DNA of 64,000 nucleotides from sequence record PZ445551.1, one strand, 5' to 3'. Each line of letters opens with the position of its first letter. Position 1 is the stretch's first letter. Origin of the DNA: a phage. The position numbers and the translations under genes were made by a program. Of the stretch, positions 8,112 through 62,204 are shown piece after piece. The notes below the pieces were generated by a model that saw nothing but the letters and a program-made list of their open reading frames with translations, was not told where the DNA came from and searched no databases.

Positions 8112-8181
8112 AAATGTCTGTACACTGTGTTCCATAAGATATACAATATCGCGCATAACAAACTACTAATGAGAGGTGTAA

Positions 8182-8640: not shown

Positions 8641-8641
8641 C

Positions 8642-8857: not shown

Positions 8858-8871
8858 AAGAGGAAAAGAAG

Positions 8872-25288: not shown

Positions 25289-25609
25289 TTAACAAGTAAT
25301 ATTGGGAGTAACAATTGGATTAACAATTGGAGTAATAGGGTACGTAAACCAAGGGCTTCCAATTTCCCAAGGATTATAAGGTCTACGAGGATCAAATGGA
25401 GGAGTTACTTCAGGCTTTTTCCAAATCTCCGCTAGTTGTTTCTTCCATTTATCCCTTGCTGTCTCATTATCTTCATCCAACTGTTCATCATTATCTTTTA
25501 TTTCTGGTTTTGGAAATAAAAGCTCTTTGACTAACTCAACATCTTCCGTCTCAATAGTAGTTTCTTTCGTAAGTTCTCCTACTGTTTCTTTAATTGTGAT
25601 TTTATACAT
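25289..25609 (-). CDS. hypothetical protein (106 aa), Pro/Trp-rich C-terminus
   Basis: track ORF; RBS gaggagg; TAATG overlap. Confidence 0.5.
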   Translation of the reverse strand: MYKITIKETVGELTKETTIETEDVELVKELLFPKPEIKDNDEQLDEDNETARDKWKKQLAEIWKKPEVTPPFDPRRPYNPWEIGSPWFTYPITPIVNPIVTPNITC

Positions 25610-47397: not shown

Positions 47398-48282
47398 TTA
47401 TTTTTGAATAGTTGACTTAATAAGGTCTTGCATAATACCACGGATTTCATTAAAGCACAGAAGAACAGATGCTTCAAAAGATCCTTCTTCATCGTTAAAG
47501 TATTTAGGGAATTTAATACCACTCAACTTAAATTCTTTATCAACAATAAAGTTAACGAAACCGTCATATTCCAGGCCAATGGCAACAACGTGCTTACCAT
47601 CTTCCATAAGTTCTACTGCACGAGATTCATAAAGGGATTCTTTACTCCATACAACCACACCTTCCGAATCTTCAAGTTTAATATAATTACCAAGGGTCAG
47701 TCGTTCAGCCTCATGTTCTTCTAAGATGGTGTCAAAACCTTTAATAATGGCTTCTTCGTGTACACTAAACGGCAGAACTGGGAAAGTACCCAACACCTCA
47801 CGAAGAAACACAGCAATATCTTCACTAATTTTCTTAGAACCATTAAGAACGTAGGTAATACTGTTTTCAGTGTCTACAACAACATAGTTATAGAAATCAT
47901 CTGCCTCTGTTTCTGGGAGCAGAGAAAACACGATATCAGCCTCAATTGCTTTTTTACTTTCTTTGTCCAGGAAGAATTCTTTAGTAGGGTTTGCAGCAAT
48001 AAACTCTTGTTCCATCTCCTGGAGTTTTTCATTAAGAATGCGTTTAACTTTTTTCTTGTTAACTTTCTTAACAGATTGCCCTACTTTAATAACCTCTAAA
48101 CCAGAGAACACTTTTACATAGGAGCCATCATCTTCAAAACGAACAAGACCAATGGTATGTGCTTGTTGCCCCTGTGCCACAACAAAATCCAGCGGTTTGT
48201 CTGTTACTGTGTTCAGTGCTGAAATAGACAGACCATCACCAGAAATCAGGGTTACGCAAGATTTGAAATTTTTAGCAAACAT
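47398..48282 (-). CDS. hypothetical protein (294 aa)
   Basis: track ORF. Confidence 0.55.
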   Translation of the reverse strand: MFAKNFKSCVTLISGDGLSISALNTVTDKPLDFVVAQGQQAHTIGLVRFEDDGSYVKVFSGLEVIKVGQSVKKVNKKKVKRILNEKLQEMEQEFIAANPTKEFFLDKESKKAIEADIVFSLLPETEADDFYNYVVVDTENSITYVLNGSKKISEDIAVFLREVLGTFPVLPFSVHEEAIIKGFDTILEEHEAERLTLGNYIKLEDSEGVVVWSKESLYESRAVELMEDGKHVVAIGLEYDGFVNFIVDKEFKLSGIKFPKYFNDEEGSFEASVLLCFNEIRGIMQDLIKSTIQK

Positions 48283-48292
48283 AGTTTTCTCC

Positions 48293-48571
48293 TCAAATAA
48301 TAACTACAAAATATTTTACACCATCATATTCGACAATATGATCAGGATATTTAAATCCTTTATAAGATTTACCAAACAGACTAACAGCTTCATTAGCTTT
48401 GTTTTGCGGATTACTCAACCACTGTTCTTCTGTGTAAAACTTAAACTCTGTTCTCTTACCTTCTTTTTCTAAACCAACAATTTCCTGTGTGATATCTTCA
48501 ATACCTGCATTCTTCAAGGATTTGATTACCTGACGCAAACCGTGTTTAAAGATATCTTCTGCTGTTAACAT
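48293..48571 (-). CDS. hypothetical protein (92 aa)
   Basis: track ORF. Confidence 0.5.
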   Translation of the reverse strand: MLTAEDIFKHGLRQVIKSLKNAGIEDITQEIVGLEKEGKRTEFKFYTEEQWLSNPQNKANEAVSLFGKSYKGFKYPDHIVEYDGVKYFVVII

Positions 48572-48607
48572 AATACCTCCAATAAGCCCCCGAAGGGGCT
48601 TTATTTC

Positions 48608-49330
48608 TTAAGCAATGATTGCTGCGATATTAGGTTTAACAAAGGTAGATGGTTTCATAATTTTACCTTTGTCATCAAAGAATACGTACACCTTTTGAAC
48701 TTCGTTATATACAGCATGTACCCCAGTATAAGAACCTTCTGCACGATCTTTGCTTCGCATCTCGATAGCATCGCATTCTTTTTCAAGAGCTTCAATAATA
48801 TCCTTAGTTTCCCAAATAGCCAGGATTTGCTTCTTGGTAGGATACTTGGACTCATTGCTATTCAACACTTCACGCATAACCTTCTTCTCGTTATAGACAG
48901 AACGTACCAAAGTATCTCGTGCCATACGTGTAAGTGTAAGAGACATTAGGGCAAATTGCAAGTCATTTTCTACCATTTTATCAAATTCAATGATAACATC
49001 GTAAATGTTTTCTGCCAGAACATCCCCTGTCGGCATTTCCAGAGCTTTATCAACACCTTCTTTACCAAAGAACATAAATGCCAGGTAGGAGGCTACCACA
49101 AAAATATCTGCTGCTGCATCAAGTAATTCAACGTGATCATTTTCCTGTGCTGCTGCTTGGAACTCTTTAAGTTCTTCTCGTACAAAAGAAAGTTGAGCTT
49201 CAAACATCTCTTGAGTAAATTCTGGAGTTACTCCACCACGTGCCTTAGCATTCCAAGCAACAATTTGATCGGCAGCTTTGATAAAGAAGCTATTGTCCAC
49301 TTTTACTTGTTTGAAAAAATTCTCGATCAT
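48608..49330 (-). CDS. MazG-like nucleoside triphosphate pyrophosphohydrolase
   Basis: EExxE...ELLDAAADIFVV metal-binding region. Confidence 0.55.
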   Translation of the reverse strand: MIENFFKQVKVDNSFFIKAADQIVAWNAKARGGVTPEFTQEMFEAQLSFVREELKEFQAAAQENDHVELLDAAADIFVVASYLAFMFFGKEGVDKALEMPTGDVLAENIYDVIIEFDKMVENDLQFALMSLTLTRMARDTLVRSVYNEKKVMREVLNSNESKYPTKKQILAIWETKDIIEALEKECDAIEMRSKDRAEGSYTGVHAVYNEVQKVYVFFDDKGKIMKPSTFVKPNIAAIIA

Positions 49331-49339
49331 TGTTTCTCC

Positions 49340-49546
49340 TTATTTAAAATATTGTTCTAACAAAACACTAATGCGAACTACAGATTCGCCCATATACGCC
49401 CCAGCACAGAGGAAAACAACAAATCTACAAAAATTGCAGTACCATTTGTCCACTGGAAACGACGCTAACATTATAATTGCAATAGCAATTAACATCATAA
49501 GAACTGTTACTAATACCATATTACCTCTTACTCTGCTGGTTCCCAA
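49340..49546 (-). CDS. small membrane protein (68 aa)
   Basis: track ORF; hydrophobic. Confidence 0.45.
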   Translation of the reverse strand: MGTSRVRGNMVLVTVLMMLIAIAIIMLASFPVDKWYCNFCRFVVFLCAGAYMGESVVRISVLLEQYFK

Positions 49547-50643
49547 GTACCTGGAATCATCTTACGTACACGTACCCCAACAGGCTTGGTAGGAATACCT
49601 TCATCTGAAAATTCTTCGTACTCAATTTCAACAAATTGACCAATAAGTGTCAAAGCATTTTCTTCTTTACGATAGTTAATGGTTTCATCTGAATCCTTAC
49701 GCATCAGGAATTCGACTACTTTACCATTTTCCATCTCGCCTGTCAATACCCCGTCACCATTTTTATCACGCTTTGCACTTACCACTTTAACTTCAAGCGT
49801 CTGCCGTGGTTTACGTTTAATAACATCATAAGAACGTTTATCAAACTCGTAAACACCTTGTGCATTACGATACACAACACCTTCCGCTTTCTCACGCAGA
49901 GCTTTTGCATAGAATTCATCAAACTGCTCTTGGTTTTCAATGTACTCTGTATGTACTACACAAATAAGTTCATCTAAACCTTTATCTTCAACAACGTCTT
50001 TTAGAGCAGCCAAAACTTCAACCCTCTTCTCAAATGGTACAGATGGCACAGGAACATCATATACATAGTATTTAAGAAGCGGAGTGTTAGCATTATGCTT
50101 TTTCCACGCACTATTAATTTGTTGAAGGCTAAGGACACCCAAACCAGCAAAAACTTCACCGTCAAGAGGATGACCAACTACTTCTTTAATGAAGGTTGGA
50201 ATTTCTTTCCAGTGAGGTGGAAGTTTATATACTTCCCCAGCTTTAGATAAACATTCACCTTGCATGTTAATCATTGAACGTAGACCATTCAATTTATATT
50301 GTGCATAACCTGGGAACAAAACACGATCAGCATAATCTTTATAATCCTGACATTTCATGGGTGTGGAAGGAACATGGTTTTCAGCTTCCTCTTTTGTTTT
50401 ATAATACCCATTCTTAAGTTGTTTTGTCCATTTGGCAAGAGCTTCTATTTCAGCTTGTTCTTCTGCTGTTGTTTCATTTGAGCGACCAATATTTTTAGGT
50501 TCTGCTGTATAAGATTTGCTAGTGATCTTTCCACCTAATTGACCATGAGCAACAGTTACAACACTACCTTCGGTATAGACTGACCACTGTTTAATTTTAC
50601 CTGTAGAAGTTTTACCATACAATGTAGGATTAGTTTGTTTCAT
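49528..50643 (-). CDS. ATP-dependent polynucleotide ligase-like nucleotidyltransferase (DNA ligase candidate)
   Basis: track ORF trimmed to MKQTNP after RBS ggagg; motif I KLNGLR, LDGEVF, EGVVYR, KRKP. Confidence 0.55.
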   Translation of the reverse strand: MKQTNPTLYGKTSTGKIKQWSVYTEGSVVTVAHGQLGGKITSKSYTAEPKNIGRSNETTAEEQAEIEALAKWTKQLKNGYYKTKEEAENHVPSTPMKCQDYKDYADRVLFPGYAQYKLNGLRSMINMQGECLSKAGEVYKLPPHWKEIPTFIKEVVGHPLDGEVFAGLGVLSLQQINSAWKKHNANTPLLKYYVYDVPVPSVPFEKRVEVLAALKDVVEDKGLDELICVVHTEYIENQEQFDEFYAKALREKAEGVVYRNAQGVYEFDKRSYDVIKRKPRQTLEVKVVSAKRDKNGDGVLTGEMENGKVVEFLMRKDSDETINYRKEENALTLIGQFVEIEYEEFSDEGIPTKPVGVRVRKMIPGTWEPAE

Positions 50644-50833
50644 CTTTAACCTCCAGTTGCGAAAGAACCCATTTAGCCATTTCAATTTCACCGTGTAGTC
50701 TGCCTAGTTCATAGGCATCATCAATATTACCACCAGTGTAATCATCCACCATAAAGTAAGGATCTTCACTACTGTTAGGCGCGTTTGCAATTCTCGTTAG
50801 TTCTTCAATAAATGTCATAGTTAACCTTACCAA
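50630..50833 (-). CDS. hypothetical protein (67 aa)
   Basis: track ORF. Confidence 0.45.
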   Translation of the reverse strand: MVRLTMTFIEELTRIANAPNSSEDPYFMVDDYTGGNIDDAYELGRLHGEIEMAKWVLSQLEVKDETN

Positions 50834-51051
50834 TTATACACAAGAGTTTGAATTTCTTCCATCAAGTCTTCAAGATCTGTATCAACATATTCAGAAGATG
50901 TTGCCATAAAGTATGTAATCATTGTGAACCCTTCAGAAGAAAGGGCATCAAGGATATCATTAAACATATCTTCCATTTCAGTATTCTCACCAAATGAAAA
51001 TAACATTTGTTGATCTTCGCTTACACCTTTAACATAGATAGCTGTACTCAT
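50827..51051 (-). CDS. hypothetical acidic protein (74 aa)
   Basis: track ORF. Confidence 0.45.
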   Translation of the reverse strand: MSTAIYVKGVSEDQQMLFSFGENTEMEDMFNDILDALSSEGFTMITYFMATSSEYVDTDLEDLMEEIQTLVYNW

Positions 51052-51054
51052 ATA

Positions 51055-51375
51055 TTAATCCTTAAGACGTTCATTTAAATCTGCAATAACATCACCTAAA
51101 TCTTCACATTCTAGGGTTAACTCTGAAACTTGTCCATTCAAATAACAAACTTCTTCATTTAGATCTGAAATAATGTTTTCTAATGAATCTACTTGGTCAT
51201 CATATGAACGTTTTGTTTCTTCAAGGTCTTCCATAAGACTATCAATCAAATGCAGCAAAGATAAGATATAGCCGTCTCCTGTCTCGTTCCTCCACTCACT
51301 TCCGTAGCGATAAATAATAATTTCACCATTATCGACTACTGTAAAATACTTACCTTCACCAGAATAAATTTCCAT
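51055..51375 (-). CDS. hypothetical coiled-coil protein (106 aa)
   Basis: track ORF. Confidence 0.5.
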   Translation of the reverse strand: MEIYSGEGKYFTVVDNGEIIIYRYGSEWRNETGDGYILSLLHLIDSLMEDLEETKRSYDDQVDSLENIISDLNEEVCYLNGQVSELTLECEDLGDVIADLNERLKD

Positions 51376-51384
51376 ACACTCTCC

Positions 51385-51789
51385 TTATTGTAGCTTAAGT
51401 GAACTGCGAAGACGTTTTTCTTGCTGATCACGAATATGTTTTGGAACCTCATGAATTGAATCGTTACCGTGCCTATTTTCAACTACTAAAGAGATAACTT
51501 GATAACCAAACTCTTCAGCAAGAGTTAAATAAGGTTTAAGTTCTTTCTCTGTGGTTGAAGTGTTAGAGACAATAATCTTTTTAATATTAGATGCCATAGC
51601 ATCACGAACAATACTCTGACACCATGCGTGTGCTTTACCTACATTCTCTGGCTTCCAATCGTAAACACCACTTTCTGTGTAATGATATTGATCTGCCTCA
51701 CAGATAGGCCAATAACCTTCAGAAATAATTTCTGCTACTGTAGATTTACCTGCACCTGAAACACCACGTAAGATGATAAGTTGTTTCAT
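51385..51789 (-). CDS. P-loop polynucleotide kinase-like protein
   Basis: Walker A GVSGAGKST; 134 aa; directly upstream-adjacent to the RNA ligase-like gene. Confidence 0.55.
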   Translation of the reverse strand: MKQLIILRGVSGAGKSTVAEIISEGYWPICEADQYHYTESGVYDWKPENVGKAHAWCQSIVRDAMASNIKKIIVSNTSTTEKELKPYLTLAEEFGYQVISLVVENRHGNDSIHEVPKHIRDQQEKRLRSSLKLQ

Positions 51790-52722
51790 TTAGCCTCCAA
51801 AGAAGTTTTCTATTTCTTTACGTCTCTCTTGTGGATCGAGAGCAGCCCATTGAGCCTTCGTAAATTTATTTCGAAGCCATTCTAGCAAAGTATAATATTC
51901 TTCGTCAACAATTTGTTTAGCATTGTTTGGGTTGTCCCAAATCATATCCCACTTCTTATTGCCACCACGCATAAGGAATTTCTTAGCAAGATAGTATGGT
52001 GACTTAATCTTTAACAGTAAGTTAAACGGGTAGTTTGTTTCACGAACAACAAACCCTTCGTGTTTACAATGTTTAGACATTTCAACAACATCTGAAAATT
52101 TAATCATCGGATAAACTTCAGGACGTTTAAACTTTGTAATAGATGCAATCCCATCAAGAACACCTTCAGGTAACATGAAACTTGTCCCATCAAGATTTTG
52201 AATTCTTGCTCCAATTAAGTATGCGCCTGGTTCTTCTTCGACAATATGTGGATCAGAAGGATCACAGATTTCAAAAAGAAAAGTTGCTTTTGCACTTTCT
52301 GTCCACTTAATGAAATACTCTATGTCGTCACACTCGGAAACAATACGGTTCTTTGCCATAATTGCAAAATCTGATTCTAGACTCCCTGTTGTTGATACAA
52401 CAAGTTTCCCTTTGTACACACCTACAGATGCCATAAAACCGTTTACTTTACGGACAGCATCTACAATTTCGTCTGCTGGAAGATCTGTACCATTTTCAAA
52501 ACGATTAAAGATTTTAGTAAAAGGCCAAATAACAACATTGTCTTCTGAGTCAACAACCAACCCACGACAATCTAAAAGTCGTTTGTCAACGTTCCACAAG
52601 TTATCCCAGAATACATTGTTTTTGTATTTAAGTACAGCAAGACCAGCATACTCTCCAGATTTAACTTCTTTTTTATGCACTAAACCTTTTGCAATCAGGT
52701 CATCACAATTGAACTTAGCCAC
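51790..52722 (-). CDS. RNA ligase-like nucleotidyltransferase (Rnl2-type candidate)
   Basis: motif I KVNGFM, EGFVVRE, KIKSPYY. Confidence 0.55.
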   Translation of the reverse strand: MAKFNCDDLIAKGLVHKKEVKSGEYAGLAVLKYKNNVFWDNLWNVDKRLLDCRGLVVDSEDNVVIWPFTKIFNRFENGTDLPADEIVDAVRKVNGFMASVGVYKGKLVVSTTGSLESDFAIMAKNRIVSECDDIEYFIKWTESAKATFLFEICDPSDPHIVEEEPGAYLIGARIQNLDGTSFMLPEGVLDGIASITKFKRPEVYPMIKFSDVVEMSKHCKHEGFVVRETNYPFNLLLKIKSPYYLAKKFLMRGGNKKWDMIWDNPNNAKQIVDEEYYTLLEWLRNKFTKAQWAALDPQERRKEIENFFGG

Positions 52723-52723
52723 C

Positions 52724-53275
52724 TTAATCTCCTTTGATTATCTTATGATGATCTACAACAATAATATCACGCTTATCCATAATAGAAATGATTTCGTCAA
52801 AATGCAAGATTTTCCCGTGTGCATCCCAACCAACATCCAACATTTTCCCATACAAATGATCAGGGAATGATCCGTGAGAGTGTCCGTGTAGCATGATTGA
52901 TCCATGCCCTTGTTTATTCCAGGCAGCCATAGGGTAATGACTTAAGACGAAGAACAGCTTCTGATATTTCACTTCGTCATAATACACAACTTCTCCATAC
53001 TCTGCAAGCACTTTTCTGTGTTTACTATAATCATGGTTCCCAACACAGTAAGTAATATCCCCTTGGAGACGGGAAGCAATCTTACGGGTATCTTCTTCAG
53101 TCCCGAAACAGAAGTCCCCAAGATGGTACATCTTTACTCCTGGTGTTGTGGCACATTTATTCCATGCTTCGATCAGTGCTTCTGTCATATGCTCCATATC
53201 TTCCCACGGACGATATTCAGGAGCAAACTCTCGGATACGTTTGTGCATAAAATGCAAATCACTTGTAATAAACAT
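52724..53275 (-). CDS. calcineurin-like metallophosphoesterase (candidate 2',3'-phosphatase)
   Basis: SDLHF, HLGDFCFG, VGNHDY motifs. Confidence 0.65.
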   Translation of the reverse strand: MFITSDLHFMHKRIREFAPEYRPWEDMEHMTEALIEAWNKCATTPGVKMYHLGDFCFGTEEDTRKIASRLQGDITYCVGNHDYSKHRKVLAEYGEVVYYDEVKYQKLFFVLSHYPMAAWNKQGHGSIMLHGHSHGSFPDHLYGKMLDVGWDAHGKILHFDEIISIMDKRDIIVVDHHKIIKGD

Positions 53276-53634
53276 TAGTATAATCCCTCGCTGAATAGTT
53301 CACTGTTGTGACCATTTCTTTCGTAGTTAATTTGTTTGGCGTTATCTGCAATGATATAAGCATCTTTGCGACTCCACCAGTTATAATACTGATCAATAAA
53401 CCCTTGATTATCAGGTAAGCAAAACAGTTTATCAATCAATCCTGCATCTTTTAAAACATTAAGTTGTGCAGATAGTACAGGATTTGCATGCCTAACACAA
53501 GGAATAATTAACTCTTCGCCATTATTGAGAATATACTTATTCGCAGCGCAGACTATAACACGTTGAGCATAGTGATCCTCACCAAGCCAAGTAAGAGGTT
53601 GGTAACAAATATCATGTTGATTAGTAGCGCACAT
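53275..53634 (-). CDS. hypothetical protein (119 aa)
   Basis: track ORF (TTG 53637) trimmed to ATG 53634. Confidence 0.5.
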   Translation of the reverse strand: MCATNQHDICYQPLTWLGEDHYAQRVIVCAANKYILNNGEELIIPCVRHANPVLSAQLNVLKDAGLIDKLFCLPDNQGFIDQYYNWWSRKDAYIIADNAKQINYERNGHNSELFSEGLY

Positions 53635-53792
53635 CAATTTTCCCCATACTCTTTTAATCTATCAGCGAAAAAACTGTAATCAGGAAGTAAAAGATCATTA
53701 CTCGTATCGCTACAGTTTTCTTCCTCTTTATAGATAAAATGCCCTTCATCCTCTTCTTGCTCTGACCAAACTGAGTAATGCATAATACCTAC

Positions 53793-54134
53793 TTAATAGT
53801 TAACACGTTTAATTTCAACACCATAGGATGAAATAAAATTTTCCTTAGCTAACATATATTTACCAGCAGCAGAAGGATTTGATGTATGAACATAGATAGT
53901 TTTAAGAGCATCCCATTCACCCGCGTACAACATACATTCTACGTCTAAGAACGCATGATATCCTTCTTGATCTTCTCCAAGATCATTATCGAAGTGTATC
54001 TCTGAGATATTATTGAAATTATCTTCATCTGAAACAAAAGATAACCAATCCTCAAAAGATTTTAACCAAATGGCATCCTCATAACCATAATCTTTAGGAT
54101 CTCTTAAATCGTCTAACCAAAGAATTTTAGCCAC
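53793..54134 (-). CDS. hypothetical acidic protein (113 aa)
   Basis: track ORF. Confidence 0.5.
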   Translation of the reverse strand: MAKILWLDDLRDPKDYGYEDAIWLKSFEDWLSFVSDEDNFNNISEIHFDNDLGEDQEGYHAFLDVECMLYAGEWDALKTIYVHTSNPSAAGKYMLAKENFISSYGVEIKRVNY

Positions 54135-54137
54135 TAT

Positions 54138-54329
54138 CTACCCCCCTTCCTGTTTCTCTTCTTTCCAAGTTTTACCATTATCTACCAACTTCTTAGAAAC
54201 AGCAAATCTTTCTCCATTGATATAAAACAAATAAAGAATAAAGGATTTTCCTATAGTTACAGTATCTGCTACTTCTACACGCTTTACACCTTGCATGTAT
54301 TTGGCTTTACCTGAATAAATAAGAAACAT
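54138..54329 (-). CDS. hypothetical protein (63 aa)
   Basis: track ORF. Confidence 0.45.
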   Translation of the reverse strand: MFLIYSGKAKYMQGVKRVEVADTVTIGKSFILYLFYINGERFAVSKKLVDNGKTWKEEKQEGG

Positions 54330-54607
54330 TACTTATTCCTTTTGTTGTTGATCACATCTAAAGCTGTGTAAGGTTTGTTTGTACCGCTGTATTCAAGAAT
54401 AATTGGTACATATTCATAGACCAACTCAAAAGTGCCATACACAGAATCTGCAACTGAAATAAGCATTTCAGTGCCTTCGTCGTTCTTAATTAATGAAAAT
54501 CTTGCCCCTGGTTTATTGAGCACTTCATATTTCTTACCTGCTGTCAGCAAACCTGAATACCATTCATTTTGCACAACAGACAAACACTTCAGATAAGTTT
54601 TTCTCAT
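54329..54607 (-). CDS. hypothetical protein (92 aa)
   Basis: track ORF. Confidence 0.5.
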   Translation of the reverse strand: MRKTYLKCLSVVQNEWYSGLLTAGKKYEVLNKPGARFSLIKNDEGTEMLISVADSVYGTFELVYEYVPIILEYSGTNKPYTALDVINNKRNK

Positions 54608-54945
54608 TTCTTTTTGCTCCTTCTTTTAGGCTTCTCGTATAAACCTAACACAGCCGATTCTTTTGCACAAATAGGAACTGACTTCATTCCTCGTTTTTTA
54701 GCTTCTGGTAGATTCAAAACCCACCAGCCAAACCAGTACAATTCATCTTCTGTGAAAGGATCTGCCATAGGATCTGCATCACGTGCTTCAAATTTAGCAA
54801 GAGCTTCTTCTATCTTTTCTATTGGAGTATCAAAGACAAAAGCCTCTGTGTCAAATTTTTGTTTCTTAGGAGCGGCTTTTGCCGCCCCATCTTTAGATGC
54901 GCGCTTTGTTACGGATCGCTTCTTCGGTGTTTTCGCCATCAACAA
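54604..54945 (-). CDS. hypothetical protein with Lys-rich N-terminus (113 aa)
   Basis: track ORF; KKRSVTKRASKDGAAKAAPKKQK tail. Confidence 0.5.
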   Translation of the reverse strand: MLMAKTPKKRSVTKRASKDGAAKAAPKKQKFDTEAFVFDTPIEKIEEALAKFEARDADPMADPFTEDELYWFGWWVLNLPEAKKRGMKSVPICAKESAVLGLYEKPKRRSKKK

Positions 54946-55132
54946 CCTCCATGCGGTGTAAGAAATCTTGCTGGAATCGCCAATACTGTTGACCAGTCCT
55001 TACATCTTCGTAGATCACAACAGGATCAAATACTTTAGATACACCCGCTGGTTTAGGAAAGCCAACTACACGATATAAACCGCCTTTGCTAATACAAGAA
55101 TATGTTACATCAGTTAAAATTTCTTTTTTCAT
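54893..55132 (-). CDS. hypothetical protein (79 aa)
   Basis: track ORF; overlaps downstream gene by about 50 nt. Confidence 0.4.
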   Translation of the reverse strand: MKKEILTDVTYSCISKGGLYRVVGFPKPAGVSKVFDPVVIYEDVRTGQQYWRFQQDFLHRMEVVDGENTEEAIRNKARI

Positions 55133-55326
55133 TTCTTAATAAACTCCAATACAGGTACGTGATCAGCAGTTAAAGTTACACAATTGTAACTCACCTTTTC
55201 AACTTCAGAGAATGCTTCAACCCAAAGCAAGAAATTCTCTTTAGCTTCTTCATAATTCAATGTTGACTTAACAACATGGAACTCACCAAGGATGACTCTA
55301 TAGATTGTTTGCATAGTTTGATTCAT
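55129..55326 (-). CDS. hypothetical protein (65 aa)
   Basis: track ORF. Confidence 0.45.
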   Translation of the reverse strand: MNQTMQTIYRVILGEFHVVKSTLNYEEAKENFLLWVEAFSEVEKVSYNCVTLTADHVPVLEFIKK

Positions 55327-55392
55327 TTATTTTTCCTTTGTTTAAAATGTGTTAAACAATCGCAAATGCTTGTGACGCACTTTGTGATCCCA

Positions 55393-55761
55393 CTAATTAA
55401 TGTCAGCACTATGATTGTTGAGAGTATAGGATACTCCATCGCCCAAGTCAACATGAATCTCAACTCCTAACTGTCTTTCTAATGGTAAACGTTTTGAGAA
55501 TTGATAATTACAAAGTTTACAGTCTAAGTCAAGCAATTCATGTTTGCTTAAACCTAGGATGATAACTTTGCTTCCCACTGTCCACTCAATACCTTCAAAG
55601 TTATCTCTTCTTTTCAAAATGTCAAGTAAGAAGATGATTTGTTGCCATTCCGTAGACAAGTCTTCTTCATAGAACGCAGAACAAAAAGTTTTATCATCGT
55701 AGAAAGCATACATTATGCCTCCATCTATTGTTTCACTTCTAACGTAACGTGTGACCCTCAT
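55393..55761 (-). CDS. hypothetical protein (122 aa), first gene of the minus-strand module
   Basis: track ORF; RBS aggagg upstream. Confidence 0.5.
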   Translation of the reverse strand: MRVTRYVRSETIDGGIMYAFYDDKTFCSAFYEEDLSTEWQQIIFLLDILKRRDNFEGIEWTVGSKVIILGLSKHELLDLDCKLCNYQFSKRLPLERQLGVEIHVDLGDGVSYTLNNHSADIN

Positions 55762-56170: not shown

Positions 56171-57064
56171 ATGAAAGTTAGTATTCTACATGGTGTTGAC
56201 TGTTATGTTACTGATGTAGACGTTAAAGTCTTTACATTCTCTGGTGGAGAACAACATGTTCAACTAGATACGAATCTATCAGGTTTCAATCATGCTACAG
56301 ACAGAATCTTACTCTCTTTAGAAGTAAGATCTGCTAAAGACTTGATGACTTTGGTTATGACTAAGAATGCATTGGACAATATGCTATATCATAAACCATA
56401 TTGTGTTGATTTACTCATGCTGTATGTGCCATATGCACGACAAGACAGAGTGTGTGAACCTGGGGAAGCATTCGGAGTTAAAGCATTTGCTTCTATAATT
56501 AATTCATTAAATTTCTCACGTGTTATCGTTGCTGATCCACATAGTGATGTTACTCCAGCAGTGTTTGACAGACTCTGTGTAATACCTCAAGAAGAGATTG
56601 CTTACGAAACTTTAAAATGGAAGTTACGTATGGAGAATTTTGCTCTTGTTAGCCCTGATGGTGGTGCTCTTAAGAAAATATTTAAATTATCTAAGAAAAT
56701 GTCTTTAGATGTGTTCTGTGCAGAGAAGGTTAGAGATACCGCAACAGGTGCTATTGTTCGTACAGACATTTCTGTACAGGATTTCAATAAGCGTAACCTG
56801 ATGATCGTAGATGATATCTGTGATGGTGGTAGAACTTTTATCGAATTGGCTAAAGTGCTACGTGCTCGTAACGCAGGTAAGATTGAGTTATATGTTACAC
56901 ACGGTATCTTTTCTAAAGGTCTTAAAGAGTTAAGTGAGCACTTTGACTGCATTCATTCTCTTAATGTGTGGGAAGATAACATCCAAGAAGATTCCGGTGT
57001 TCTTGTTAAGAATCAGTCAGATTTGCAACAACAAATTGTATCTCCATACGTGTGGAATTTTTAA
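56171..57064 (+). CDS. ribose-phosphate pyrophosphokinase (Prs) family protein; candidate ADP-ribose pyrophosphate synthetase (Adps-like)
   Basis: VPYARQDR, VSPDGGA, MIVDDICDGGRT, VTHGIFS motifs of the PRPP synthetase fold. Confidence 0.75.
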   Translation: MKVSILHGVDCYVTDVDVKVFTFSGGEQHVQLDTNLSGFNHATDRILLSLEVRSAKDLMTLVMTKNALDNMLYHKPYCVDLLMLYVPYARQDRVCEPGEAFGVKAFASIINSLNFSRVIVADPHSDVTPAVFDRLCVIPQEEIAYETLKWKLRMENFALVSPDGGALKKIFKLSKKMSLDVFCAEKVRDTATGAIVRTDISVQDFNKRNLMIVDDICDGGRTFIELAKVLRARNAGKIELYVTHGIFSKGLKELSEHFDCIHSLNVWEDNIQEDSGVLVKNQSDLQQQIVSPYVWNF

Positions 57065-57074
57065 ATAATAAGTG

Positions 57075-57103
57075 TTGACAACAGGGAGTATGCTTAGTAA
57101 GAT
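57075..57103 (+). promoter_or_regulatory. sigma70-like promoter TTGACA-17-TAAGAT overlapped by 7-bp inverted repeat GGGAGTA/TACTCCC
   Basis: read directly upstream of the NAMPT-like gene. Confidence 0.5.
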
Positions 57104-57135
57104 ACTCCCACACTAACAAACAAGGAGACATAACT

Positions 57136-58884
57136 ATGAATATTTTTGCACCTTTTGCTACTGATTGGTATAAACCTGGTCACAAGCAGATGTACAACCA
57201 AAATACAAAACTCATTTTCTCTAATTTAACTCCTCGTAATGATAAAAACTTTGCACACTATGCAGATCGTGAAGCACGTGGTGTGATTGTTTTAGGTATT
57301 CGTCGAGCAGTCACCGATGCCCTTGTAACTATGTGGGACAGCTTCTTTAAAATGTCTCGTAGTGCAGCAGTAAATAAATTTTATCGTATGTCTAAAAATG
57401 CATTAGGTGCTTCTGCTCCTTCTGCTGAATGTTGGGGAGAATTGCACGATTTAGGTTATCTTCCGCTAGAAGTTCGATCTCTGCCAGAAGGTGTTTTGTG
57501 TCCTATTGGTGTTCCTGTGTTTACTGTGCATAACACTTTAGAAAAATTCTTTTGGTTAACTAACTATGTGGAAACACTATTGTCAGATGAAACTTGGAAG
57601 ACAATGACTAACGCCACAGCAGCTTTTCAGTATAAGCGTATCGCTATGGCGTATGCGATGGCAACGTGTGATAACATTGATCACGTTAATTTCCAGTGTC
57701 ATGACTTTAGTCTACGTGGCTTAAGCAATATCGAAGATGGTTATAAGAGTGGTATCGCTCATTTGGCATCTTTCACAGGAACAGATAATATTCTGGCTAT
57801 TGAAACTGTGCATGATTACTATGGTATTGATTATGATCAATTTGTTGCAGGTTCTATTCCGGCAACAGAACATTCAGTAGCAACGACTAACATTGGAGCT
57901 ATTGTTGAAGATCTGAAGAAACATTTCCCACATCTTAAAGATGATGTTGATGGGCTTCGTTATGTAGCAGAGAAAGAGTTTCTTCGCCGCTATATTGAAG
58001 AAATTGTCCCAGAAGGTTTTTGTTCATATGTAGCAGATTCTTATGATTACTGGGCTGTCTTGACTCGCATTCTGGTAGAATTGAAAGAGTCCATTATGTC
58101 ACGAAATGGTCGTCTTGTTATTCGTCCAGATTCAGGAGATCCGGTTAAAGTTGTTGCAGGATACAATGTTGAATCTTTTGATAACTATGAAGACCTTTTA
58201 AATAATGGTATTGCTACAGCCACTGAAGTAGTACATTTGGCTGATGTTAATAAGTATTACAATGTTCTTCAGGATTGCAGTGTTGCTGATTGTATCGATG
58301 AAACTTATGAGATTCCTTATTGTGAAGCAGTAGGTTCTATTCAAATCCTTTGGGAAGTGTTTGGCGGTACTATCAACCGAAAAGGCTACAAGGTTCTTGA
58401 TCAGCACATCGGTATGATTTATGGTGATTCTATTACTGTTGAACGAGAACACGAAATCTTACGCCGACTGAAGAAGAAAGGCTTTGCTGCTTCCAATATT
58501 GTATTTGGTGTTGGTAGTTATACTTATCAGTTCAATACACGAGATACTTTTGGTTTTGCTGTTAAAGCAACAGGTAGTATCATCGGTGAACACGAAATTT
58601 TGGTAAGTAAGGAGCCTAAAACTGATCCTGGTAAACGCTCTGCAAAAGGTTTTATTAAGGTTGTTAAGGATACAAATGGTAAACTTTCTCTTGTGGATAA
58701 TCTTTCTTTTAAAGATATCCAAGATGAAGACAATGAGTTAAAAGTTATCTTCAGGGATGGTACGGTTATTACACCACAAGTAGAAGGACGTGATGAAACA
58801 TTTACTGATATCCGTAACCGTGTTGATGTAGAGGTTCTTCGTACTATGGGAACCATCCAGGTTGACTACATAAAAACTTCGTGA
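57136..58884 (+). CDS. nicotinamide phosphoribosyltransferase (NAMPT/NadV) family protein; candidate nicotinamide ADPR transferase (Namat-like)
   Basis: N-terminal TDWYKPGHKQMY matches the NAMPT TDSYK.TH motif; 582 aa. Confidence 0.75.
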   Translation: MNIFAPFATDWYKPGHKQMYNQNTKLIFSNLTPRNDKNFAHYADREARGVIVLGIRRAVTDALVTMWDSFFKMSRSAAVNKFYRMSKNALGASAPSAECWGELHDLGYLPLEVRSLPEGVLCPIGVPVFTVHNTLEKFFWLTNYVETLLSDETWKTMTNATAAFQYKRIAMAYAMATCDNIDHVNFQCHDFSLRGLSNIEDGYKSGIAHLASFTGTDNILAIETVHDYYGIDYDQFVAGSIPATEHSVATTNIGAIVEDLKKHFPHLKDDVDGLRYVAEKEFLRRYIEEIVPEGFCSYVADSYDYWAVLTRILVELKESIMSRNGRLVIRPDSGDPVKVVAGYNVESFDNYEDLLNNGIATATEVVHLADVNKYYNVLQDCSVADCIDETYEIPYCEAVGSIQILWEVFGGTINRKGYKVLDQHIGMIYGDSITVEREHEILRRLKKKGFAASNIVFGVGSYTYQFNTRDTFGFAVKATGSIIGEHEILVSKEPKTDPGKRSAKGFIKVVKDTNGKLSLVDNLSFKDIQDEDNELKVIFRDGTVITPQVEGRDETFTDIRNRVDVEVLRTMGTIQVDYIKTS

Positions 58885-59616: not shown

Positions 59617-59692
59617 GGTTCCATAGCTCACTGACGAGAGCGCACACCTCATAAGTGTCGAGGGCAGGGATTGTAACCCTGGGGAACCTCCA
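59617..59692 (+). tRNA. tRNA-Met(CAT) (or Ile2), atypical T-loop ATTGTAA
   Basis: manual cloverleaf: acceptor GGTTCCA/GGGAACC, D-arm GCTC..GAGC, anticodon loop CTCATAA, CCA encoded. Confidence 0.6.
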
Positions 59693-59723
59693 TTTAAAAG
59701 GAGGTGCTATGCATCTCCTATAT

Positions 59724-59809
59724 GCAAGTGTGGTGGAATTGGTGATACACATTGTGCTTAAAACGCAACGCTTAAATGCTTGAGGGTTCGAATCCCTCCA
59801 CTTGCACCA
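59724..59809 (+). tRNA. tRNA-Leu(TAA), type II
   Basis: acceptor GCAAGTG/CACTTGC, anticodon loop CTTAAAA, long variable arm, T-arm GAGGG-TTCGAAT-CCCTC. Confidence 0.75.
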
Positions 59810-59824
59810 ACACCTAAAAATATC

Positions 59825-59853
59825 TTGACATTTACTTAGTTTTTTGTTATAGT
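59825..59853 (+). promoter_or_regulatory. sigma70-like promoter TTGACA-17-TATAGT
   Basis: read directly; 11 nt upstream of the tRNA-like element. Confidence 0.5.
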
Positions 59854-59864
59854 TACTATGAAAA

Positions 59865-59946
59865 CGGGGTGTATCTCACCTGACTTCTAATCAGGCGTTA
59901 ACCGAGTAATTGGAGTATGCAGGTTCGAATCCTGTCACCCCGGCCA
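59865..59946 (+). tRNA. atypical tRNA-Arg(TCT)-like element lacking a D-arm
   Basis: perfect acceptor CGGGGTG/CACCCCG, T-arm GCAGG-TTCGAAT-CCTGT, anticodon hairpin CCTGA-CTTCTAA-TCAGG, but only 7 nt between acceptor and anticodon stem and a 23-nt insert before the T-arm. Confidence 0.4.
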
Positions 59947-60009
59947 AAAAGTTTTAAAAACTACTTGACAAGCAAGATAGTTTTATGTTAGATTTAAAGT
60001 ATAATAACT

Positions 60010-60099
60010 GGAAGGTAGGGCGCAGCGGTGCGCAACCAGGTTTGAACCCTGGCCCATTGTAGCGATACGGTGATGGTTCGACTCCATTATCTTCCTCCA
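60010..60099 (+). tRNA. tRNA-Ser(TGA), type II
   Basis: acceptor GGAAGGT/ATCTTCC, anticodon loop TTTGAAC, long variable arm, CCA encoded. Confidence 0.75.
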
Positions 60100-60117
60100 A
60101 ATTCTCTTAGGAGCTTT

Positions 60118-60270
60118 ATGAATTATAAAACTATTGGACAGGTTGTTACCGGAGTTAAGATTGTAAATAATAAAGTTGTTTATGAGTATTCTAATCTTCA
60201 ACAATCTGAAGATGGTAAGAATATTCGTATGGTAAAAACAGAACAAAAAGATTCCGGTTGTTTTGAATAA
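60118..60270 (+). CDS. small hypothetical protein (50 aa) embedded in tRNA array
   Basis: track ORF 60070..60270 trimmed to ATG 60118 after RBS aggag so it no longer overlaps tRNA-Ser. Confidence 0.45.
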   Translation: MNYKTIGQVVTGVKIVNNKVVYEYSNLQQSEDGKNIRMVKTEQKDSGCFE

Positions 60271-60278
60271 TTAAAAAC

Positions 60279-60364
60279 GGTAGATTGGTGAAATGGTAGC
60301 CACAACAGTTTGCTAAACTGTCGTCGGAAACGGCGTGTAGGTTCAAGTCCTACATCTACCGCCA
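60279..60364 (+). tRNA. tRNA-Ser(GCT), type II
   Basis: acceptor GGTAGAT/ATCTACC, anticodon loop TTGCTAA, long variable arm, T-arm GTAGG-TTCAAGT-CCTAC. Confidence 0.8.
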
Positions 60365-60498
60365 AGTTATCTTTAATGTAGCTTGTAATCTTACTTTAGC
60401 AGAGTAAATCTTCGGCAAGTGGCGGTAACCACTTTACCGATACCCCAATACTTCATAGCTAAGTGCCGCAAACACTGGCTATTTTAAAGATAATTTAT

Positions 60499-60574
60499 AC
60501 ATCGTTAGCTTAGTTGGTAGAGCAAGGGGCTTTTAACTCCAAGGTCGAAGGTTCGAATCCTTCACGATGTACCA
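60499..60574 (+). tRNA. tRNA-Lys(TTT)
   Basis: acceptor ACATCGT/ACGATGT, D-arm GCTT..GAGC, anticodon loop CTTTTAA, T-arm GAAGG-TTCGAAT-CCTTC. Confidence 0.85.
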
Positions 60575-60579
60575 AACAC

Positions 60580-60666
60580 GTAGGTATCGCATAGCGGCAA
60601 TTGCTGGAGACTGTAAATCTCCTGCCCTTCGGGGCTTCGTTGGTTCGAGTCCAACTACCTGCACCA
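60580..60666 (+). tRNA. tRNA-Tyr(GTA), type II
   Basis: anticodon arm GGAGA-CTGTAAA-TCTCC, variable-arm hairpin GCCCC-TTCG-GGGC, T-arm GTTGG-TTCGAGT-CCAAC. Confidence 0.8.
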
Positions 60667-60673
60667 AATTAAA

Positions 60674-60758
60674 GATGGATTGGCCTAGTGGTTGGGCGAC
60701 GGACTGTTAATCCGTGAACGAAAGTTCTAGCAAGGTTCAAATCCTTGATCCATCGCCA
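60674..60758 (+). tRNA. tRNA-Asn(GTT) with unusually long (15-nt) variable arm
   Basis: acceptor GATGGAT/ATCCATC, anticodon arm ACGGA-CTGTTAA-TCCGT, variable hairpin GAAC-GAAA-GTTC, T-arm CAAGG-TTCAAAT-CCTTG. Confidence 0.7.
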
Positions 60759-60837
60759 AATAGTGCTTGTAGAGTTAATAGAAACCTCTAGAATTTTCTA
60801 GAATTGTAGGTATCAAATCCTACCAAGCAAATATTTT

Positions 60838-60912
60838 GCTCCTATCGTATAACGGCTATTACGGTTGCCTTGTAAGCAACTTATCAGGGTTCGAGTCCTT
60901 GTGGGAGCACCA
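60838..60912 (+). tRNA. tRNA-Thr(TGT)
   Basis: acceptor GCTCCTA/TGGGAGC, anticodon arm GTTGC-CTTGTAA-GCAAC, T-arm CAGGG-TTCGAGT-CCTTG. Confidence 0.8.
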
Positions 60913-60935
60913 ATTTTAACTCTAAAGGAGTGTAT

Positions 60936-61259
60936 GTGACAGAAAAAGAGTTAGAGAAATATTTTAATATCAATGTTTTCGATGGTTTTGATGATATTGA
61001 AGATGTTGAAAGATATTATGAAGTAGAGTTAGATAAGGATAACATTGTAATTCTTTCTGCCACTTATGATTGTGCATATTATGAAGGCGAATCTCACGTT
61101 TATTTTTATGATATGAAAACATCTTTGTTTTATGAAGTACACGCATATCATTGTTCTTGTTATGGCTTAGAAGGTCAGTGGGAACCTGAAGAAATAGGTG
61201 ATTTGGACTTTACTATTGCATATCTAAACAGACGTGGTTCATCTACTATTTTAAAATAA
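60936..61259 (+). CDS. hypothetical acidic protein (about 107 aa) embedded in tRNA array
   Basis: track ORF 60930..61259; likely GTG start at 60936, 5 nt after RBS aaggag. Confidence 0.5.
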   Translation: MTEKELEKYFNINVFDGFDDIEDVERYYEVELDKDNIVILSATYDCAYYEGESHVYFYDMKTSLFYEVHAYHCSCYGLEGQWEPEEIGDLDFTIAYLNRRGSSTILK

Positions 61260-61273
61260 ATATCAAAAGCCTC

Positions 61274-61303
61274 TTGACAAAGGGGCTAATAATATGTTAG
61301 AGT
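61274..61303 (+). promoter_or_regulatory. sigma70-like promoter TTGACA-18-TAGAGT
   Basis: read directly; about 12 nt upstream of tRNA-Gly. Confidence 0.5.
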
Positions 61304-61314
61304 AATATTATTAA

Positions 61315-61389
61315 GCGGGTATAGTGTTAATGGTAGCATATGAGGTTTCCACCCTCCAGGTGCAGGTTCAAGTCCTGTTACTCGCTCCA
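61315..61389 (+). tRNA. tRNA-Gly(TCC)
   Basis: acceptor GCGGGTA/TACTCGC, anticodon loop TTTCCAC, T-arm GCAGG-TTCAAGT-CCTGT. Confidence 0.8.
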
Positions 61390-61488
61390 AGATTATTTAA
61401 ATGGAATCGTTAGAGAAAATTTCTCTTTTCGCTCATGGTTTTCTCCTTCAAACTCTAGCGGTTCTTTTTAAGTGATTTTTTAGTTTAT

Positions 61489-61563
61489 TGGAGATTAGCC
61501 TAGTGGGAAGGCAACGGCCTTTGAAGTCGTGATGACTAGGTTCGATTCCTAGATCTCCAGCCA
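61489..61563 (+). tRNA. tRNA-Gln(TTG)
   Basis: acceptor TGGAGAT/ATCTCCA, anticodon arm ACGGC-CTTTGAA-GTCGT, T-arm CTAGG-TTCGATT-CCTAG. Confidence 0.8.
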
Positions 61564-61570
61564 ATATTTA

Positions 61571-61646
61571 CAGTGCGTAGCGCAGTTGGTAGCGTGGGAG
61601 CCTTGGACGCTTCAGGTCGCAGGTTCGAGTCCTGCCGCACTGACCA
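61571..61646 (+). tRNA. tRNA-Pro(TGG)
   Basis: acceptor CAGTGCG/CGCACTG, D-arm GCGC-AGTTGGTA-GCGT, anticodon loop CTTGGAC, T-arm GCAGG-TTCGAGT-CCTGC. Confidence 0.85.
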
Positions 61647-61651
61647 AATTT

Positions 61652-61726
61652 GCAGAGATAGCTGAGACGGATTAGTGCTACCCTGAAAAGGTAGAAAGGA
61701 TGGATCGTTACCATCTCTCTGCACCA
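61652..61726 (+). tRNA. tRNA-Phe(GAA), atypical T-loop ATCGTTA
   Basis: acceptor GCAGAGA/TCTCTGC, anticodon arm CTACC-CTGAAAA-GGTAG, T-stem GATGG/CCATC. Confidence 0.75.
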
Positions 61727-61803
61727 AATAACACCATCCAAGGAGTAGACTTGGTTAACTGTCAATAGCACATTGAGGCTTCTTACAGTGGTGTACTTAT
61801 TAT

Positions 61804-61888
61804 GGCTAAGTGGTGGAATGGTATACACGATACGCTTAGAACGTATTGCCCCAAGGGATTGTGAGTTCGAGTCTCACCTTAGCTACCA
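61804..61888 (+). tRNA. tRNA-Leu(TAG), type II
   Basis: acceptor GGCTAAG/CTTAGCT, anticodon arm ATACG-CTTAGAA-CGTAT, long variable arm, T-arm GTGAG-TTCGAGT-CTCAC. Confidence 0.8.
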
Positions 61889-61903
61889 AATTATTACAGA
61901 TTG

Positions 61904-61982
61904 TGCGGGATAGAGGAGTCTGGTCGTCCTCGCCAGTTTCATATGCTGGAGATCATCGGTTCGAATCCGATTCCCGCCTCCA
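61904..61982 (+). tRNA. tRNA-Met(CAT) (second CAT tRNA; elongator Met, initiator or Ile2)
   Basis: anticodon arm CCAGT-TTCATAT-GCTGG, T-arm ATCGG-TTCGAAT-CCGAT, acceptor with mismatched 1-72 pair. Confidence 0.7.
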
Positions 61983-62040
61983 ATAAATACCTCCCTTCTG
62001 GTGTAATGATTAAGTTACATTGACACTTCAAGGAACTCAT

Positions 62041-62123
62041 AGCCGGGTAGATTTAAAAGAGTATGGTACTCAATATGGCTCCAAACCATAGATCAAGGGG
62101 TTCGATTCCTCACCTTGCTGCCA
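62041..62123 (+). tRNA. atypical tRNA-Trp(CCA)-like element (possible pseudo-tRNA)
   Basis: anticodon arm TATGG-CTCCAAA-CCATA and T-loop TTCGATT present, but 11-nt insert between acceptor 5' strand and D-arm and imperfect acceptor/T stems. Confidence 0.3.
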
Positions 62124-62128
62124 ATTAT

Positions 62129-62204
62129 TGTGGTATCGTACAGATGGTTAGTACACTCGACCGATAATCGAGAAACAACGGTTCGACTCCGTTTACCACG
62201 ACCA
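62129..62204 (+). tRNA. tRNA-Ile(GAT)
   Basis: acceptor TGTGGTA/TACCACG, D-arm GTAC-AGATGGTTA-GTAC, anticodon arm CTCGA-CCGATAA-TCGAG, T-arm AACGG-TTCGACT-CCGTT. Confidence 0.8.

Follow-up and report, generated by a model that had tools for sequence, protein, structure and literature searches.

Do three adjoining genes of an Escherichia phage together encode a pathway that mends broken RNA? The genes in question occupy positions 51385-53275 on the minus strand of a 64,000-nt stretch of phage DNA (PZ445551.1), hereafter the window, to which coordinates refer unless a contig is named. A sequence-only reading of this DNA had recognised a P-loop kinase, a ligase-family nucleotidyltransferase and a calcineurin-like phosphoesterase by their motifs and had interpreted them as a split Pnkp-like cassette for RNA end healing and sealing. 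Escherichia phage VivaForever (PP925843.1), of the genus Justusliebigvirus (phi92-like), matches the window at 100% identity, and the cassette stretch shares 97-99% identity with phi92, BASEL phage Bas62 and other members of this genus. We found the three consecutive genes exactly where they had been placed, with the motifs ascribed to them, and each encoded protein matched the profile expected for it:

51385..51789, minus strand: P-loop kinase, polynucleotide-kinase-like and stand-alone, 134 aa; predicted RNA 5'-OH kinase
51790..52722, minus strand: ATP-dependent RNA ligase of the Rnl1/Trl1 type, 310 aa, GTG start; predicted adenylylation site Lys92 in KVNG
52724..53275, minus strand: metallophosphoesterase with a binuclear metal site, of the type of Aquifex aq_1665, 183 aa; predicted healer of 2',3'-cyclic phosphate or 3'-phosphate ends

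The proposed division of the 5'-kinase, 3'-end phosphoesterase and ligase steps among three separate genes draws support from profile and fold homology, from intact catalytic residues, from linkage of the genes in distant phages and from fusions between them. We assign a probability of about 0.72 to the reading that these proteins constitute a pathway for RNA break repair, the likely targets being tRNAs cut by host defence nucleases. The stop codon (TAA) of the ligase gene is followed directly by the ATG of the kinase gene without any gap, a single nucleotide separates the phosphoesterase stop from the GTG of the ligase gene, and a Shine-Dalgarno-like sequence precedes each of the three genes. 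The cassette lies inside a 36-kb block of co-directional genes, as judged by GC skew. A scan for promoter and terminator consensus sequences between 47 and 57 kb gave counts no higher than in shuffled sequences, and the transcription unit could not be delimited.

Families and catalytic residues of the three proteins

The ligase carries motif I (KVNGFM) at residues 92-97 and matches Pfam RNA_lig_T4_1 (PF09511; 2.8e-14, 54 bits at a cut-off of 28.3) as well as phrog_562 (1.6e-68). No NCBIfam model was found for this protein, for the phosphoesterase or for the neighbouring cREC and phrog_839 proteins described below. A single-sequence phmmer search of the PDB returned nothing meaningful for the ligase, and a family profile (A1, 27 homologues) was needed to obtain a match; its sole solved structure was T4 Rnl1 (2C5U, 3e-9), while the ligase domain of Pnkp was not found. 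In the resulting alignment, which ends at motif V, residues R53, K70, F72, K92 and G95 of the phage protein correspond to R54, K75, F77, K99 and G102 of T4 Rnl1, and E151, E222-G223, K238 and K240 (motifs III, IV and V) correspond to E159, E227-G228, K240 and K242. All of these residues are invariant in the 27 homologues. We take their T4 counterparts to be the essential residues of the T4 mutational literature, including the upstream Arg54, Lys75 and Phe77. An AlphaFold (AF2) model of the ligase with a predicted local distance difference test score (pLDDT) of 90 was compared with the PDB by Foldseek. The best matches were T4 Rnl1 and the ligase domains of fungal Trl1 (9QW7, 6N0T, 8RBJ, 6N67; E 5e-14 to 3e-11), followed by archaeal Rnl3 (5e-11 to 2e-7), while Rnl2, Rnl5 and DNA ligases did no better than 2.5e-7. 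Membership of the Rnl1-type (T4 Rnl1/Trl1) RNA ligase family is well supported by profile, aligned residues and predicted fold. The family itself is large, comprising 2574 database proteins at E <= 0.001, many of them from large enterobacterial phages and environmental viral contigs.

The asparagine in motif I had been regarded as uncommon, a view that our survey contradicts. Asn94 is invariant among the 27 homologues, KxNG turned up in 223 of the 276 family members covered by a pattern search, Trl1 ligases are described with KxNG as their motif I (PMC10946426), and the DNA ligase of African swine fever virus (ASFV) contains KRNG. We also considered KxNG as a mark of unusual chemistry and rejected this idea, since the motif is the norm of the family and occurs in Trl1 as well.

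The kinase displays its P-loop (RGVSGAGKST) at residues 8-17 and matches Pfam AAA_33 (7e-10), phrog_2071 (1.6e-57) and, more weakly, phrog_505, labelled 'polynucleotide kinase' (5e-9). Single-sequence searches of the PDB were marginal (T4 Pnk, 0.23). A family profile (A2) built from 47 sequences aligned across its full length with T4 Pnk (1LY1/1LTQ, 4e-9), with Pnkp1 in the Pnkp1-Rnl-Hen1 complex (4XRP, 6e-8), with the kinase of Clostridium thermocellum Pnkp (CthPnk, 4GP7, 7e-7) and with mammalian PNKP and the tRNA kinase PSTK, while nucleotide and sugar kinases matched around the P-loop only. Residues G9, G14 and K15 and Asp33 are invariant in the 47 sequences, and Asp33 aligns to Asp35, the general base of the T4 enzyme. 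The HAD-type (DxDxT) 3'-phosphatase domain of T4 Pnkp is absent, so that the 134-aa protein consists of the kinase domain only. Full-length homology and conserved residues point to a polynucleotide-kinase-like protein with a predicted 5'-OH kinase activity.

The phosphoesterase exhibits the motifs DLH (residues 6-8), GDFCFG (53-58) and GNHD (79-82). It matches phrog_547 (8.5e-55), and its similarity to Pfam Metallophos_2 (5e-4, 20.6 bits) stays under the gathering cut-off of 27. Its family profile (A3, 45 sequences) found aq_1665, an Aquifex structural-genomics protein (1XM7, 8e-24), followed by the phosphodiesterase GpdQ (1e-3). The ligands expected for a binuclear metal centre are retained in the 45 sequences, with H8, D54, N80-H81, H113, H132 and H134 invariant and D6 conserved in at least 90%. 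Motif II reads GDFCFG and not GDxxDR as in the clade of lambda phosphatase and C. thermocellum Pnkp (CthPnkp). Both of these enzymes, which belong to the same superfamily, hydrolyse 2',3'-cyclic phosphates (PMC2190708). The phage protein shares the superfamily of the Pnkp 3' healer and represents a different clade within it, that of aq_1665. A second metallophosphoesterase, annotated as a NinI-like serine/threonine phosphatase of the lambda-phosphatase type, is encoded 25 kb from the cassette (25609-26352, minus strand); its clade is the one to which the metallophosphoesterase of the Pnkp 3' healer belongs.

The comparison with T4 Rnl1, Rnl2 and Pnk and with Clostridium Pnkp, suggested along with the original interpretation, placed the ligase closest to Rnl1 and Trl1, with Rnl2 far weaker, and the kinase closest to T4 Pnk, Pnkp1 and CthPnk; the phosphoesterase profile did not match CthPnkp.

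Linkage and fusion of the three genes in viral and cellular genomes

We examined the association of the three genes in 80 viral contigs encoding ligase relatives (40-96% identity), counting linkage by family hidden Markov models (HMMs) within 6 kb, and in a second set of 80 loci seeded with the phosphoesterase. Some contigs occur in both sets and near-duplicates are present, so that the counts represent rough frequencies. All three genes were present in 59 of the ligase-seeded loci; ligase and kinase occurred in 13, ligase and phosphoesterase in five and the ligase alone in three. The ligase was thus accompanied by the kinase in 72 of 80 loci and by the phosphoesterase in 64 of 80, the latter usually directly adjoining the ligase on either side. 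Two gene orders were observed, phosphoesterase-ligase-kinase and kinase-ligase-phosphoesterase. In the phosphoesterase-seeded set a ligase was present in 41 of 80 loci, 39 of which also contained the kinase. Four of the ligase-less phosphoesterase loci (L105, L110, L113 and L155) harbour a 370-aa open reading frame (ORF) with a KLDG motif, e.g., L155:8358-9470, which by eye looks like a member of a different RNA ligase family.

In 11 viral contigs (L043, L045, L055-L057, L061-L066) the kinase is fused N-terminally to the ligase. These fusion ORFs measure 421-432 aa (e.g., L063:5530-6825), apart from a 338-aa ORF at a contig edge (L061), and carry Pfam AAA_33 and RNA_lig_T4_1. The 5 kb around the viral fusion loci held no other phosphatase that recurred from contig to contig.

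A scan of cellular genomes, one per prokaryotic species, yielded 34 loci. Twenty-nine were cyanobacterial, chiefly from Leptolyngbyaceae (within L166-L197), a few of them on truncated contigs, and most encoded a single protein of 703-781 aa that unites kinase, metallophosphoesterase and ligase. In one example (L184:4768-6906), which contains Pfam AAA_33, Metallophos and RNA_lig_T4_1, the central domain matched the CthPnkp phosphatase (4J6O, 2.5e-24) and the kinase domain matched CthPnk (4GP6, 3.5e-11). The ligase domain, C-terminal in the trifunctional protein, is 31-35% identical to the phage ligase. These cyanobacterial proteins have the architecture of Pnkp, with a ligase domain related to the phage ligase and not to the ligase domain of Clostridium Pnkp. 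In the same contig, an ORF about 1.6 kb downstream of the trifunctional gene (L184:8508-9689) resembles RtcB by eye. Four Cardiobacteriaceae loci combine a kinase-ligase fusion with an adjoining aq_1665-type phosphoesterase, and a contig from a metagenome-assembled Flavobacteriaceae genome (L164) has three separate genes, like the window.

Of all the computational evidence, the viral and cellular fusions argue most strongly for a single pathway shared by the three proteins of the phage. They also justify the term 'split Pnkp-like' for the kinase and the ligase, both of which have single-chain cyanobacterial homologues; the term is less apt for the phosphoesterase, which falls into the aq_1665 clade and whose linkage is facultative.

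Neighbouring genes and alternative explanations

Upstream of the phosphoesterase gene, three further minus-strand genes complete a block of six:

53275..53637, minus strand: phrog_839 protein, 120 aa, between cREC and the phosphoesterase; possible lineage-specific accessory
53634..53783, minus strand: 49-aa ORF, overlapping its neighbour genes, annotated as hypothetical and without a family match
53793..54134, minus strand: protein with a cREC domain, 113 aa; probably an accessory factor in end healing

Several observations weigh against a single three-gene pathway directed at tRNA. In the 47-sequence kinase alignment, Arg38 and Arg126 of T4 Pnk are without positional equivalents: R38 sits in a segment of T4 Pnk that is inserted with respect to the phage kinase family, and R126 aligns to a variable position, with the nearby R106 (29 of 47 sequences) aligning to T4 R122. 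As the family moreover has invariant residues of its own (R8, Y43, Y87 and H113), the phage kinase forms a separate branch among the polynucleotide-kinase-like kinases. The ligase tail past motif V comprises about 70 helical residues, compared with about 130 in T4 Rnl1, whose C-terminal domain (~120 aa) gives specificity for broken tRNA. This tail is conserved out to the cyanobacterial homologues, with matches reaching residue ~308; because it is short, T4-type tRNA specificity cannot be assumed for the phage ligase. The phosphoesterase profile matched neither the CthPnkp phosphatase (4J6O) nor lambda phosphatase (1G5B) in the PDB, and aq_1665, the nearest solved relative, is without known function. 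In 39 of the 80 phosphoesterase-seeded loci there is no ligase within 6 kb, and no aq_1665-type phosphoesterase was found within 5-6 kb of the viral kinase-ligase fusions. The cassette is embedded in a long block of DNA-metabolism genes. Our literature search found no biochemical or genetic work on the cassette clade; the literature on phi92, Stephanstirmvirinae, Vequintavirinae and Justusliebigvirus in connection with RNA ligase or polynucleotide kinase yielded no study of the cassette.

A further point of this kind comes from a 153-kb viral contig (L082, IMGVR_UViG_3300014004_000001), positions 5145-8995 of which are syntenic with the window. It retains cREC (46% identity), the phrog_839 protein (79%) and the phosphoesterase (91%), and ligase and kinase are missing together. 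After the phosphoesterase gene and a gap of about 365 bp without window homologue, the contig resumes with the genes that in the window lie beyond the kinase; L082 is a natural two-gene indel. From this contig and the linkage counts, kinase and ligase emerge as a tight unit, which the phosphoesterase often accompanies but from which it can be separated.

The same loci bear on the possibility that the block holds two adjoining units, with kinase and ligase devoted to RNA repair and with the phosphoesterase, cREC and the phrog_839 protein forming an independent module whose targets are not RNA 3' ends but, for instance, free 2',3'-cyclic nucleotides, other nucleotide signals, or cyclic phosphates derived from nicotinamide adenine dinucleotide (NAD) or ADP-ribose. 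Such a division would fit the joint loss of ligase and kinase from L082, the solitary phosphoesterases in 39 of 80 loci (three of them with cREC) and the kinase-ligase fusion loci without an aq_1665-type enzyme. It would also agree with the presence of NAMPT, PRPP synthetase and Sir2 genes in the phage and with the work of Iyer et al. 2021 (PMC7824862), who tie cREC to NAD/ADP-ribose-processing systems besides RNA ligases. We nevertheless regard two independent units as unlikely, in view of the 64 of 80 ligase-seeded loci in which the phosphoesterase accompanies the ligase, mostly as its immediate neighbour on one side or the other. Furthermore, the Cardiobacteriaceae keep the phosphoesterase beside their kinase-ligase fusion, the fused cyanobacterial and Clostridium Pnkp enzymes hold a metallophosphoesterase in the same place, and a pathway starting from 2',3'-cyclic phosphate ends needs an activity of the phosphoesterase type.

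The cREC protein matches Pfam cREC_REC (PF20274; 2.3e-14, 54.3 bits at a cut-off of 27). With an iterated HMM, cREC was found in 13 of the 80 ligase-seeded and eight of the 80 phosphoesterase-seeded loci, and in L004-L008 and L013 its gene lies directly between those of ligase and kinase. According to Iyer et al. 2021, cREC denotes a cyclic-phosphate processing receiver that is predicted to open cyclic phosphates and occurs in RNA ligase operons (PMC7824862). It is plausible from this distribution that cREC acts as an accessory end-healing factor in a subset of lineages. The 49-aa ORF is conserved in close relatives only, and the phrog_839 protein is a fold-orphan neighbour. One might go further and regard the whole block at 51385-54134 (cREC, the 49-aa ORF, phrog_839, phosphoesterase, ligase and kinase) as one repair machine mechanistically unlike those of T4 and Pnkp, with cREC and phrog_839 as new subunits for end processing or substrate targeting. 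Within this larger machine, cREC and phrog_839 might supply the tRNA recognition missing from the short-tailed ligase, or they might open cyclic phosphates and so provide the 2'-phosphate required by a Trl1-like KxNG ligase. We consider a six-gene machine quite improbable.

A second ligase-like gene containing KLNGLR had been pointed out, and it is indeed present:

49528-50691 (ORF; the deposited coding sequence is equivalent to 49528-50643): ATP-dependent DNA ligase, containing KLNGLR

The protein matched PF01068 (6.6e-11), phrog_114 (1.4e-75) and, below the cut-off, the NCBIfam DNA ligase model NF006592 (6e-19), with a weak OB_2 domain match (0.0066), and in the PDB it matched the DNA ligase of ASFV as well as 4D05, a LigE-type ligase. 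We therefore rejected it as a second RNA ligase and classed it as a standard ATP-dependent DNA ligase outside the cassette. Its proximity is relevant to the idea that the substrates of the cassette enzymes are DNA ends, at nicks with a 5'-OH or a 3'-phosphate, in the course of phage replication and recombination, or that the ligase is a tail-fibre attachment factor like T4 gp63. Genes for a DNA ligase, an RdgC-like protein and an exonuclease lie in the same block as the cassette, T4 Pnk works on DNA too, and phrog_562 bears the label 'RNA ligase and tail fiber protein attachment catalyst'. Conversely, a dedicated DNA ligase is encoded only 1.1 kb away, the relatives of the cassette ligase in both fold and sequence are RNA ligases, with DNA ligases ranking far lower, and the tail-fibre part of the label is inherited from T4 gp63 and finds no support here. 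An action on DNA ends or tail fibres is, in our judgement, highly improbable.

The tRNA array begins at 59617, i.e., 6.3 kb from the cassette end at 53275, which bears out the distance of about 6 kb given by the sequence-only reading. It extends over 59617-62204 on the plus strand and comprises about 16 genes. ARAGORN predicted 15 tRNAs, including Met (59617-59692) and Ser(UGA) (60010-60099), both of which were absent from the Rfam calls at gathering score; an extra tRNA-like gene (59865-59943, 38.6 bits) was called by Rfam and in the deposited annotation ('tRNA-OTHER') and missed by ARAGORN. The array includes tRNAs for Lys(UUU), Tyr and Asn, which we take to be known targets of anticodon nucleases. 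Its position 6 kb from the cassette is consistent with a pressure from tRNA-targeting defences. One could also imagine that kinase and ligase serve RNA of the phage itself, through maturation of tRNA or mRNA, circularisation, splicing, or repair of mRNAs cut by host toxin RNases, and not the mending of host tRNA after anticodon-nuclease attack. The phage-encoded array of about 16 tRNA genes and a ligase without the long C-terminal domain (which underlies the tRNA specificity of T4 Rnl1) would be compatible with such a role. Yet ARAGORN and Rfam call complete tRNAs, and neither introns nor split tRNAs were seen. That L082, a close syntenic relative, does without kinase and ligase suggests that their role is accessory and not one of essential processing, and the characterised relatives all take part in break repair or tRNA splicing. 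We hold a role confined to the phage's own RNA to be very unlikely.

Between the cassette block and the tRNA array, genes for ribose-phosphate pyrophosphokinase and nicotinamide phosphoribosyltransferase, an NAD salvage pair, are located at 56171-58884 on the plus strand. The deposited annotation lists a Sir2-like gene at ~20314-21126. A 190-aa product annotated as 'histidyl tRNA synthetase' (26689-27261, minus strand) falls well short of the length of a complete synthetase.

A proposed repair pathway and its known counterparts

The repair pathway that we infer for the three cassette proteins, together with their enzymatic activities, RNA substrate and counter-defence role, would proceed in three steps. 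The metallophosphoesterase, possibly with the help of cREC, would hydrolyse a 2',3'-cyclic or 3'-phosphate to leave a 3'-OH end. The kinase would then move a phosphate from a nucleoside triphosphate onto the 5'-OH, with Asp33 as the predicted general base. Finally, the ligase would be adenylylated at Lys92, transfer AMP to the 5'-phosphate and seal the break. tRNAs cut by host anticodon nucleases would be the likely substrates, in agreement with the nearby tRNA array and with the rationale published for RNA repair in phages (PMC7824862). That kinase and ligase act on RNA ends appears very probable, and we rather favour, with more reserve, the phosphoesterase as the 3' healer working with them.

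The most obvious counterpart is the pair Pnkp and Rnl1, with which T4 counters the anticodon nuclease PrrC. The phage ligase shares with T4 Rnl1 its family (PF09511), its catalytic residues and its best fold match, the phage kinase is homologous to the kinase domain of T4 Pnk over the full length, and in both systems a 5'-OH and a 2',3'-cyclic phosphate are (in the phage by prediction) healed prior to sealing. Unlike T4 Pnkp, the phage kinase is a stand-alone protein of 134 aa that lacks the HAD phosphatase and counterparts of Arg38 and Arg126, and 3' healing is assigned, by prediction, to a binuclear metallophosphoesterase instead. The ligases differ in motif I, which is KEDG in T4 and KxNG in the phage, and in the length that follows motif V (~130 versus ~70 residues).

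With bacterial Pnkp (Clostridium thermocellum Pnkp/Hen1) the phage cassette has in common the same three activities, as far as predicted, and a metallophosphoesterase as 3' healer. In contrast to the single bacterial polypeptide, however, the phage encodes three separate ORFs, its phosphoesterase is of the aq_1665 type without a match to CthPnkp or lambda phosphatase, and its ligase is of the Rnl1 type. Another difference concerns Hen1: Pfam and PHROG scans of the neighbouring ORFs from 47398 to 55761 revealed no match to Hen1 or a methyltransferase among the genes adjoining the cassette. Split Pnkp systems (Pnkp1-Rnl-Hen1) as such are already known (PMC4411300).

Fungal and plant Trl1 resembles the phage system in its KxNG motif I, in the structural similarity of its ligase domains, which are among the best matches to the phage ligase model, and in the combination of a ligase with a polynucleotide kinase. 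It differs in employing a 2H cyclic phosphodiesterase and in requiring a 2'-phosphate at the junction, which is later removed by Tpt1. Neither a 2H nor a Tpt1/KptA gene was seen in the annotated window.

The three activities are not new to the annotation of these phages, as GenBank records already name an RNA ligase, a polynucleotide kinase and a phosphoesterase, one of them reading 'RNA ligase/RNA repair'. Phage RNA-repair gene sets were reportedly described by Burroughs and Aravind in 2016. Moreover, Iyer et al. 2021 noted that in phages polynucleotide kinases and phosphoesterases accompany ATP-dependent RNA ligases (Rnl1/Rnl2), with a calcineurin-like domain as the phosphatase in some cases, and that cREC shares operons with RNA ligases (PMC7824862). 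Their survey rests on comparative genomics rather than experiment and concerns jumbo phages, with phi92 and rV5-like phages unmentioned, but its gene sets are of the same class as the phage cassette (PMC7824862). The cassette is thus a member of a class of systems anticipated by published comparative genomics and adds little conceptually. Some freshness lies in the kinase-ligase fusions, in the Pnkp-like proteins of cyanobacteria, whose ligase domain is of the Rnl1 type, in the relative L082 without ligase and kinase, and in the fold-orphan neighbour phrog_839.

Cleavage of tRNA is a widespread form of bacterial immunity, to which phages respond with replacement tRNAs and repair enzymes. To our knowledge, T4 is the only phage whose RNA repair pathway has been studied in detail. 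The small kinase and the short Rnl1-type ligase described here could serve as reagents. Beyond this, the cassette offers a compact and naturally modular set of kinase, ligase and phosphoesterase for study against defined anticodon nucleases, with relatives of the L082 type as natural controls.

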